16,844 bases of DNA. It comes from Caedibacter taeniospiralis (GTDB lineage Bacteria > Pseudomonadota > Gammaproteobacteria > Francisellales > Francisellaceae). Under the pieces are notes generated by a model. That model did not search any database, was not told the origin of the DNA, and saw nothing but the letters and a program-made list of their open reading frames with translations. The DNA lies in contig NZ_PGGB02000016.1 in NCBI RefSeq assembly GCF_002803295.2, forward strand, positions 1-16,844, read 5' to 3'. Position numbers and translations under genes: made by a program. Every line of letters starts with the position of its first letter. Position 1 is the stretch's first letter. Shown one piece after another: positions 2,385 to 3,342 of this stretch.

Positions 2385-2526
2385 TCTAGAGACTAGTGTC
2401 AAGAGACTAGAAACTAGGGATTGAATCTTGCTGTGCGAGATGATTTTTTAAATGAATCATCGCGAAGCGATTCGAGTCTGGTTTCTAGTTTCTAGAGTAA
2501 GCGCAGCGAGCGTTCTAGTATCTAGA
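2385..2526 (+). repeat. Heptamer-armed element with conserved core, spacer copy B (direct duplicate of 2167-2308)
   Basis: The same 142-nt string follows the CCA of tRNA-Ala, offset 218 nt from copy A. Confidence 0.9.
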
Positions 2527-2531
2527 GCCGA

Positions 2532-2543
2532 GATCTTTAACAA
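2532..2543 (+). promoter_or_regulatory. boxA-like antitermination element upstream of 23S
   Basis: gatctttaacaa versus the rrn boxA consensus gctctttaacaa, at the usual position in the spacer just 5' of 23S. Confidence 0.6.
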
Positions 2544-2566
2544 TTTATTATAGAGTAATGACCAAG
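2535..2566 (+). other. 5' half of the 23S processing stem
   Basis: ctttaacaatttattatagagtaatgaccaag pairs over all 32 nt with 6617-6648: 28 Watson-Crick pairs and 4 G-U pairs. Confidence 0.8.
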
Positions 2567-2726
2567 AGAATAAGCGCAAACGGCGGATGCCTTGGCAGTC
2601 AGAGGCGAGGAAAGACGTGATAGCCTGCGAAAAGCTTCGGGGAGCTGGCAAATAAGCATTGATCCGAAGATATCTGAATGGGGGAACCCACCTCACTCAT
2701 AAAGTGCTCAGCACTTTATTCATTTC

Positions 2727-2759
2727 GAGAAACTAGAGATTGGAAACTAGAAACTAGAG
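2727..2759 (+). repeat. Orphan one-armed heptamer tract inside an expanded 23S helix 9 region (expansion ~2691-2769)
   Basis: gagaaactagagattggaaactagaaactagag has no complementary arm nearby. It sits between cctcactc (2691-2698) and gagtgag (2757-2763). About 95 nt are extra relative to E. coli here. Confidence 0.7.
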
Positions 2760-3197
2760 TGAGTAGAGGGTGTAATTTGTGCATGAATGAGTATTTTAAG
2801 AGTGGGGTATCACTGACGTAAGTTAAGTGAGGCGAACGTGGGGAACTGAAACATCTAAGTACCCATAGGAAAAGAAATCAACCGAGATTCCCTAAGTAGC
2901 GGCGAGCGAAGGGGGAAGAGCCTGGTATACTTTAGCATGTGAGTTAGTCGAACATTCTGGGAAGGATGACCATAGCAGGTGATAGTCCTGTAGACGAAAG
3001 CTTGGATGTGGAACTAGGTATACGAATAAGTAGGGCGGGACACGAGAAATCCTGTTTGAAGAAGGGGGGACCATCCTCCAAGGCTAAATACTACTGACTG
3101 ACCGATAGTGAACCAGTACCGTGAGGGAAAGGCGAAAAGAACCCCGATGAGGGGAGTGAAATAGAACCTGAAACCGTTTGCGTACAAGCAGTCAGAG

Positions 3198-3342
3198 CTA
3201 GAAACTAGAGACTAGAAACTAGAGACTAGAGATTAGGGGTTGAAGCGCTTCGCGATGATTAATTTACAAAAATAAATCATCTTGCAAAGCAAGATACGAC
3301 TCCTGGTTTCTAGTCTCTAGTTTCTAGTTTCTAGGAGACTAG
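3198..3342 (+). other. 23S intervening sequence at helix 25 (E. coli ~545): heptamer arms plus conserved core
   Basis: Insert lies between gcagtcagag and tgatggcgtaccttttgtataatggg. Left arm is ctagaaa ctagaga ctagaaa ctagaga ctagaga. The core starts ttaggggttgaagcgcttcgcgatgatt. Right arm is tttctag tctctag tttctag tttctag. Confidence 0.88.

Follow-up and report, generated by a model that had tools for sequence, protein, structure and literature searches.

Within a single rRNA (rrn) operon of Caedibacter taeniospiralis, one ~65-nucleotide (nt) module occurs in five copies, in the 16S gene, the tRNA spacer, and the 23S gene, and in two opposite orientations relative to the transcript. The operon lies at the start of the 16,844-nt contig NZ_PGGB02000016.1, which was analyzed over its whole length (the window), and is followed by ordinary genes. 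Each copy is the core of a 110- to 140-nt near-palindrome that has (CTAGARA)n heptamers on its left and complementary (TYTCTAG)n heptamers on its right. Because their location, terminal inverted repeats, and sporadic distribution match those of rRNA intervening sequences (IVSs), we assign the elements to that class. Our preferred explanation, to which we give a probability of roughly 0.55, is that the cores are apical modules of one family of IVS-type hairpins and that homology among the arms allows cores to be exchanged in either orientation.

Covariance model (CM) matches placed the core at the five sites listed in Table 1, in agreement with an earlier reading of the letters alone (the original prediction), and the shared strings described there, including the exact 15-mer CGCTTCGCGATGATT, are present in the window. 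The copies in helix 6 (h6) of 16S rRNA and helix 25 (H25) of 23S rRNA run one way (orientation A, in which, as in h6, the short hairpin ATCGC-N3-GCGAT comes first); the two spacer copies and the copy in H98 of 23S rRNA run the other way (orientation B). With up to two mismatches, the 13-mer CGCTTCGCGATGA occurs five times (2 on the plus strand and 3 on the minus strand) versus 0.2 expected, a count equalled in 0 of 200 shuffles, and a pattern describing the two short hairpins matched exactly the five core sites in the window versus 0 expected. The two spacer cores sit within an identical 145-nt duplicated block, and the copies therefore amount to four independent ones, two per orientation.

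The simplest objection to two orientations is that the core is self-complementary. It is a strong quasi-palindrome, each copy being 56 to 68% identical to its own reverse complement, and its sole asymmetry lies in two unequal local palindromes, the 5-bp ATCGC-N3-GCGAT on one side and the 7-bp ATCTTGC-N3-GCAAGAT on the other, whose order defines orientation. Cores from different sites are 69 to 84% identical when placed in the same canonical orientation versus 56 to 71% in the wrong orientation, with pair scores of ≥49 throughout versus ≤48 throughout; the spacer-versus-16S pair is nearly ambiguous by pairwise identity alone (72% versus 71%). Orientation was therefore evaluated in a noncircular manner, with a sequence model trained on five minus-class cores only. 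On the opposite strand, this model scored 55.4 bits for the H25 copy and 35.5 bits for the 16S copy; on the same strand, it gave 10.6 and 10.1 bits, respectively, and under it the palindromy background for all core copies is 8 to 11 bits. Because the opposite-strand scores far exceed that background, core orientation is defined and real; similarity between the classes exceeds what palindromy provides, and the proposal of one module in two orientations stands. Some DNA-level event must have set these two orientations. Divergence of the rRNA helices in place, which the original prediction had set aside, indeed fails as an explanation, given the 69 to 84% core identity across sites and the short, canonical, and empty H98 and 16S h6 of relatives. 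The center of the short palindrome reads GCGAAGC, a heptamer well known to form a very stable DNA mini-hairpin.

Tandem heptamer arrays flank every core, typically with ~5 units per arm (range, 2 to 11), and CTAG is found at both termini at every site. Arms of the CTAGARA type also enclose a coreless hairpin in the spacer and the IVS of H45 in 23S rRNA. The minimum free energy (MFE) structure of the whole elements is a single long hairpin of −58 to −85 kcal/mol (z score, −7.5 to −15), with −64.8 kcal/mol (z score, −10) for the h6 element and −84.7 kcal/mol (z score, −15) for the H98 element, and the elements contain perfect stems of 28 to 35 bp. Exact runs of 22 to 33 nt, both direct and inverted, are common to the arms of different sites, and the two arms of one element share inverted exact runs of 22 to 32 nt. 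To tell inversion of a whole element from inversion of its core alone, the order of AAA and AGA heptamers was considered; it is uninformative, the arms being palindromic. Filled and empty sites were compared for a target-site duplication, but none is readable, as the element ends are CTAG and thus the repeat unit itself. The idea that the core arose by an internal deletion in the H45 element was rejected: the CM finds no similarity there. The tetranucleotide CTAG, for which base composition predicts 61.6 occurrences in the whole 16.8-kb window, occurs 101 times inside the operon, concentrated in heptamer arrays, and is scarce outside it (~16 in the 10 kb after position 6800 versus ~37 expected pro rata).

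At 4,066 nt versus a 2,925-position model, the 23S gene must hold more than 1 kb of insertions. Alignment of the window to the Escherichia coli rrn operon assigned the inserts to helices (Table 1), and the heptamer-armed rRNA inserts (16S h6 and 23S H25, H45, and H98) all replace the tips of variable, surface-exposed helices. In the spacer, the core-bearing hairpins directly adjoin the tRNAs, starting 1 to 2 nt past CCA and ending 1 to 2 nt before the next 5′ end, and the coreless hairpin ends 1 base short of the tRNA-Ile 5′ end. The insert in the H9/H10 region carries left-type heptamers without a matching right arm and is a probable decayed family member. The open reading frame (ORF) within the H45 IVS encodes a PF05635 (23S_rRNA_IVP) protein with weak bAvd similarity, a four-helix-bundle protein and not a transposase.

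Several lines of evidence bear on the transcript rather than the DNA. In every core-bearing element of both orientation classes, the rRNA-sense strand is 8 to 17 kcal/mol more stable than its complement, with 4 to 10 G·U pairs versus 0 to 2 on the antisense strand (10 versus 1 in the orientation-A copy of 16S h6 and 6 versus 2 in that of H25). The imperfections of the palindrome are wobble pairs on the transcribed strand only. A consensus structure (alifold) of six sense-strand copies is a long hairpin, formed by pairing between the 5′ and 3′ halves of the core, and seven of its pairs switch between G-C or A-U and G·U. The module had been described as three separate hairpins; its two short palindromes are present, and both MFE and alifold favor one long hairpin with pairing core halves instead. 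The stability advantage and the confinement of G·U pairs to the sense strand indicate that the elements were kept as RNA helices after the DNA event that set their orientation. An early suggestion that the core is bound or processed by something thus finds support insofar as there is RNA-level selection, as the sense-strand G·U bias attests; that both orientations work speaks against a sequence-specific RNA binder. The orientation classes present complementary sequences, which favors a reader of structure rather than sequence, of which RNase III would be an example.

Nearly identical rRNA from other assemblies made it possible to compare alleles at single helices. Contigs L001 (NCBI GCA_054403375.1) and L024 (JACCEA01) cover H25, and L025 (JACCDZ01) covers H98. 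Outside the inserts, 23S of L024 shows zero differences from window positions 2560 to 5711, substitutions being confined to the inserted elements. In both L001 and L024, the H25 core is in orientation B, versus A in the window. After reorientation, the two H25 cores are only 76% identical and their arms also differ (CTGGAAA units), whereas the alleles of the internal transcribed spacer (ITS) and of H98 are 95% and 97% identical, respectively, between the same lineages. Each H25 allele is nearer to an H98 copy (81 to 84%) than to the other H25 allele: the window H25 element, once inverted, matches the H98 element of L025 at 88% over 135 nt, and the H25 element of L001 aligns with the window H98 element directly (85.6% over 125 nt). 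Across the family, similarity among core copies does not track orientation class. Because the H25 alleles differ by 24% after reorientation and each nears H98 copies, the H25 difference looks, from these comparisons, as if one cassette had been replaced by another member of the family and not turned over at its site. The same data speak against simple inversion between an element's own arms, one of the two routes originally put forward. Arm length also varies by whole units: the left arm of the coreless spacer hairpin is 8 units (56 nt) shorter in L024 than in the window.

Two further differences were seen in these contigs. L024 lacks a 218-nt block (window positions 2161 to 2378) that carries one spacer element and tRNA-Ala; it may be a tRNA-Ile-only operon variant or a short-read collapse of the 145-nt duplicate. 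A cluster of ~60 differences common to L024 and L025 lies at window positions 5712 to 6092 in 23S, the rest of the gene being identical, which suggests a recombination (mosaic) tract inside the 23S gene.

To place the family more widely, we drew on short metagenome contigs encoding homologues of the IVS protein (63 to 72% identity; GC content, 45 to 61%), namely L033, L034 to L037, L038, L039 to L041, L042 to L045, L047, and L048. CTAG heptamer arms, ~5 CTAGAGA/CTAGAAA units and their complements, flank the H45 ORF in 8 of 8 further lineages checked and are more conserved than the host 23S (~80%). The ORF is in sense orientation in 9 of 9 lineages, so orientation matters where there is a protein to express and not for ORF-less hairpins. 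To our knowledge, the conservation of CTAGARA arms across nine lineages has not been described previously. Heptamer-armed hairpins with unrelated tips occupy H9 and H25 of L033, H25 and a spacer of L038, and spacers of L042; the L033 hairpin in the H9 region is intact where the window has its left-only insert. Other sites are empty: L033, L034, and L038 have a short H98 without an insert; L034 has none in H25 either; and in L038 and L042 16S h6 is empty and the 16S is of normal length. With model R1, one further genuine core was found (24.1 bits; E, 5e-6), in H68 of L039/L040 and with CAAGARA instead of CTAGARA arms (Table 1); these contigs carry CAGGARY and TAGGART heptamers at other sites. 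The family therefore extends beyond a single lineage, and the helices it occupies differ from lineage to lineage. Together with the opposite-orientation H25 core in two assemblies, this H68 core counts in favor of the original prediction.

The spacer tips of L038 and L042 and a 23S insert of L040 upstream of H25 (within E. coli positions ~395 to 420) were rejected as core members, with only 4 to 9 bits and ambiguous orientation. In L042 (positions 3990 to 4470), hairpins fill every gap between 16S, tRNA-Ile, tRNA-Ala, and 23S, as in the window; its spacer arms are (CAGAGGA)n, resembling the GACAGAT repeats of Coxiella. An orphan right-type CTAG/CCAG array in the same contig (positions 8293 to 8324) ends 5 nt before 5S.

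Database searches placed all robust core copies within rRNA operons (window, L001, L024, L025, and L039 to L041). The core pattern gave 13 matches in 185,579 species genomes, among whose representatives the source organism or its rrn operon is not included; all were chance matches in GC-rich coding sequence. A metagenome core scan gave 11 matches, 2 true ones, both in rRNA, and 9 by chance, and scans of viral contigs found no core. Neither the 10 kb of non-rRNA sequence in the window nor non-rRNA metagenome or genome contigs contain a copy. Exact-protein lookups of spurious ORFs over 16S and 23S, made to find more alleles, returned none on record. Rfam 15, searched at permissive thresholds, gave no family, only generic matches to hairpins resembling microRNA precursors, far below gathering scores. 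We found no transposase-encoding partner with matching termini, the ORF-bearing H45 element with its PF05635 product being the only such element with these arms, and no invertase gene adjacent to the elements. Tandem CTAGAGA arrays do occur in four IMG/VR phage contigs (L017 to L020), in intergenic positions of structural-gene regions. In L019, five CTAGAGA units separate a TATAAATA motif from the major capsid gene, and L018 has a heptamer-armed hairpin with a ATCGCGAT tip downstream of two structural-module ORFs read as baseplate-like from sequence. These arrays were judged unrelated to the rRNA family.

How might cores come to be exchanged? Left and right arms are mutually reverse-complementary and common to all sites, which gives any two elements 22 to 33 nt of exact homology, direct as well as inverted. 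Recombination or gene conversion through the arms could then copy a core from one site to another in either orientation or invert it in place, and would yield both orientations, the H25 allele replacement, and whole-heptamer changes in arm length. After each DNA event, selection on the rRNA-sense transcript retains the long helix, as the G·U bias shows. RNase III, reading double-strandedness and not sequence, would tolerate either orientation; by cutting the long helix, it would excise the inserts, free the neighboring tRNAs, and leave a fragmented but functional rRNA. We infer this excision by analogy with the IVSs of Salmonella, Leptospira, and Coxiella and from the 28- to 35-bp perfect stems. 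Exchange through the arms is favored because it fits the H25 replacement, the decoupling of similarity from orientation, the heptamer length changes, and the restriction to rrn operons.

Several points weigh against this explanation. No recombination event was directly observed, and arm homology of 22 to 33 nt barely reaches the length needed for RecA-type exchange. The gap in L024, maybe an assembly collapse, shows how fragile short-read contigs are over repeats. Arm exchange leaves the first arrival of the arms at 16S h6 and H98 unexplained; that step needs an insertion mechanism or growth in place from a CTAG-containing loop. The inserts could also stay in the ribosome as expansion segments, RNase III processing and fragmentation being only predicted. 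Copies outside rrn operons may exist in the genome beyond the sequence covered here. Finally, the H45 element with its PF05635 ORF is sense in all nine lineages, and arm-mediated inversion, if frequent, must be selected against there.

Arm exchange, MITE-like transposition, and in-place inversion are not mutually exclusive. As a miniature inverted-repeat transposable element (MITE), the family would be a nonautonomous transposon whose arms serve a trans-acting enzyme as terminal inverted repeats, with CTAG- or TA-like targets in exposed rRNA loops and insertion in either orientation. This would explain the colonization of new sites, and it draws support from the constant CTAG...CTAG termini and the ~5-heptamer arms at most sites, from the difference in occupied sites between lineages (H68 in L039 and h6, H25, and H98 in the window) with empty sites in relatives, from an empty H98 loop in L033 that reads CCTAGAGG, a possible target, and from the ORF-bearing H45 element with identical arms; moreover, IVSs have long been proposed to be mobile elements or remnants of transposition (PMC4990558). 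However, no copy was found outside rrn operons in the 10-kb flank of the window, in metagenome contigs of the same populations, or in the 185,579 genomes; no transposase is recognizable, the partner ORF being PF05635; a target-site duplication is indistinguishable from the arms; internal deletion of the H45 element did not give rise to the core, the CM finding nothing there; and arms vary from 2 to 11 units. The MITE-like unit as originally stated is not upheld by these findings, and transposition of this kind is possible but unlikely. We regard as distinctly unlikely an in-place flip-flop, in which intramolecular recombination between an element's own inverted arms would turn the core without movement between sites. 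The 22- to 32-nt inverted runs within elements would permit it, both H25 orientations occur in near-identical 23S backbones, and orientation does not follow sequence similarity. Yet a flip accounts neither for H25 alleles that remain 76% identical after reorientation, with differing (CTGGAAA) arms, beside ITS and H98 alleles at 95 to 97%, nor for their greater closeness to H98 copies than to each other; it leaves the same core at five sites unexplained; and no invertase is adjacent, a tyrosine-recombinase fragment lying ~10 kb off beside a Tn3-family gene (Table 1). It is a rather improbable but consequential idea that the heptamer arms and the Avd-like PF05635 protein of H45 form an autonomous mobile element for rRNA helix tips, with the ORF-less hairpins as nonautonomous passengers. 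In that case, the protein would bind the arms or the DNA palindromes of the core and promote insertion or exchange in either orientation. If true, the widespread family of 23S IVS proteins would have a first known function, and the origin of bacterial IVSs would be accounted for.

At the RNA level, the hairpins could be stable expansion segments kept in the mature ribosome, their conserved core docking a ribosome-associated factor. All sites are in surface helices, the sites h6, H25, H45, H63, and H98 coincide with sites of eukaryotic expansion segments, and selection for pairing acts on the RNA. We nevertheless hold this reading to be very improbable: complementary cores cannot show one RNA surface to a factor, matching hairpins also fill tRNA spacers, which must leave the transcript, and the homologous H45 IVSs with heptamer arms belong to a type that RNase III has been shown to cut in Coxiella (PMC4990558). 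That the cores have no real orientation, being merely self-complementary or, as inverted copies, fold-back artifacts of assembly, can be dismissed for practical purposes. The 56 to 68% self-identity and wrong-strand CM matches of 8 to 17 bits lend it some plausibility, but the minus-class-only model refutes it (55.4 and 35.5 versus 10.6 and 10.1 bits), orientation B recurs at the ITS and H98 in independent assemblies, which also have a B allele of their own at H25, and the sense-strand-specific G·U pairs of both A copies would be absent from an artifactual inversion.

Small inverted-repeat units are familiar from other bacterial genomes. The Correia elements of Neisseria and the ERIC and REP repeats occur in both orientations, are cotranscribed, and form hairpins; they are dispersed over hundreds of intergenic sites, and the Correia elements in addition have TA duplications and transcripts that serve as substrates of RNase III. 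The present family differs in being found only inside rRNA operons and in having no readable duplication. Rickettsia palindromic elements (RPEs) insert within functional genes, RNA genes included, where an extra surface hairpin is tolerated, and resemble the present elements as palindromic units within a functional RNA gene at a hairpin-tolerant position; they are found genome-wide, mostly in protein-coding genes, with no heptamer-repeat stem and no restriction to rRNA operons. The 16S IVSs of Helicobacter, Campylobacter, Caedibacter, and Clostridium paradoxum are hairpin inserts in a 5′ variable region that are possibly excised; they are not known to have a module in common with the spacer hairpins or 23S IVSs of their operon.

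Also comparable are the ORF-less 23S IVSs of Salmonella, Proteus/Providencia, Yersinia, and Photorhabdus (~80 to 110 nt, in H25 or H45), short extended stem-loops that likewise replace a tetraloop tip, are sporadic among operons and strains, and are excised by RNase III to leave fragmented, functional rRNA (PMC4990558, PMC2672173). The present family differs in occupying at least five sites, including 16S h6, H98, and tRNA spacers, in both orientations, and in its tandem-heptamer stems. The window H45 element itself belongs with the protein-encoding (IVP/S23p) H45 IVSs of Coxiella burnetii and Leptospira, with a sense PF05635 ORF and a terminal-repeat stem of ~28 to 35 bp; the present cores are ORF-less and have only arms in common with it. 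In Coxiella, RNase III cuts midway in the 28-bp IVS stem, and the heptameric repeats of the IVS are reported to vary by whole units (PMC4990558). IVSs at H9, H25, and H45, their excision by RNase III, and the transposon-remnant hypothesis have long been known (PMC4990558, PMC2672173). A 2009 survey described a small Photorhabdus luminescens IVS and Thermoanaerobacter tengcongensis inserts without GenBank homologues and Photobacterium profundum IVSs without an additional copy elsewhere (PMC2672173). The origin of rRNA IVSs has been open since 1990, with transposon remnants, mobile elements, and local growth competing as explanations (PMC4990558).

In searchable full text, we found no account of one IVS module in 16S, spacer, and several 23S helices, of such a module in both orientations, or of near-identical operons that differ in its orientation at one helix, nor of CTAGARA stems as a conserved signature of IVP-type IVSs; only the GACAGAT repeats of Coxiella came up. 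One module at five sites of one operon (16S, spacer, and 23S) in both orientations, with an opposite allele at H25 and a copy in H68 of a relative, comes close to a natural experiment showing that IVS hairpins change places or move in the form of DNA cassettes, with later retuning as RNA, the latter judged by their sense-strand G·U pairs. This is unusually direct evidence that rRNA IVSs are cassettes moved or swapped as DNA and then kept as RNA hairpins. CTAGARA heptamer stems are moreover a conserved signature of the H45 IVS with its PF05635 ORF across diverse lineages; the candidate functional unit is therefore the arms and not the core or the ORF. In practical terms, the inserts lengthen 16S V1 and 23S, and they can cause trouble for amplicon design, for rRNA gene callers, and for assembly from short reads.

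Table 1. Features of the rrn operon and its surroundings in the window and, in the last two rows, core copies in contigs of relatives
Feature	Position	Strand	E. coli position (helix)	CM core match (strand)	Remarks
16S gene	223-1858
16S h6 hairpin insert	293-418	+	70-97 (h6, V1)	324-387 (+)	Left heptamer arm 293-324; orientation A; right arm 394-418
Coreless heptamer hairpin before tRNA-Ile	1976-2088	+			11 left units, 5 right units
tRNA-Ile	2090-2166
Spacer hairpin between tRNA-Ile and tRNA-Ala	2168-2307	-		2199-2260 (-)	Outer and inner heptamer arms; orientation B
tRNA-Ala	2309-2384
Spacer hairpin after tRNA-Ala	2386-2525	-		2417-2478 (-)	Identical duplicate of the 2168-2307 element; orientation B
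23S gene	2560-6625
23S H9/H10 insert	2705-2825	+	After ~171 (H9/H10 region)		~85-100 nt; left-type heptamers only, 2728-2758
23S H25 hairpin insert	3198-3334	+	540-546 (H25)	3236-3303 (+)	Arms 3198-3236 and 3306-3334; orientation A
23S H45 IVS	3956-4388	+	1167-1184 (H45)		Heptamer arms 3956-3989 and 4355-4388; encloses ORF 3998-4348
23S H63 insert	4948-5050		1734 (H63)		Different arm family
23S H68 insert	5184-5478		1867 (H68)		Different arm family
23S H98 hairpin insert	6395-6526	-	2788-2804 (H98)	6426-6494 (-)	Arms perfectly complementary, 5 heptamers each; orientation B
5S gene	6667-6781
Tn3-family transposase gene	13326-16325				999 aa; ~7 kb beyond operon; best plasmid match Aquicella lusitana, 47%
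Truncated tyrosine recombinase (PF00589)	16264-16716				Beside Tn3-family transposase gene; ~10 kb away
H68 core, contig L039	2168-2315		(H68)		Minus-class orientation; CAAGARA arms instead of CTAGARA
H68 core, contig L040	2904-3047		(H68)		Minus-class orientation; CAAGARA arms instead of CTAGARA

The H63 and H68 inserts of the window 23S gene have arms of another family, with ACCACTWAATT in common; the arm pairs are GACCACTAAATTC...GAATTTAGTGGTC in H63 and CTACCACTTAATTA...TAATTAAGTGGTAG in H68. The H68 insert holds a frameshifted GIY-YIG nuclease ORF (positions 5262 to 5471; PF01541; E, 2.4e-9). These two inserts may represent a second, unrelated IVS family within one 23S gene.

Beyond the operon, the Tn3-family transposase gene and the adjoining recombinase fragment suggest that 13326 to 16716 is a transposon inserted ~7 kb from the rrn operon; no heptamer array was found at the transposase gene, the ends of that transposon not having been examined. 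An in-frame stop divides an aminotransferase (PF00202) gene on the minus strand (positions 9370 to 11508) into pieces of 176 and 487 amino acids. The split gene is identical in the independent Logan contig L003 and is therefore a real pseudogene or a programmed feature.

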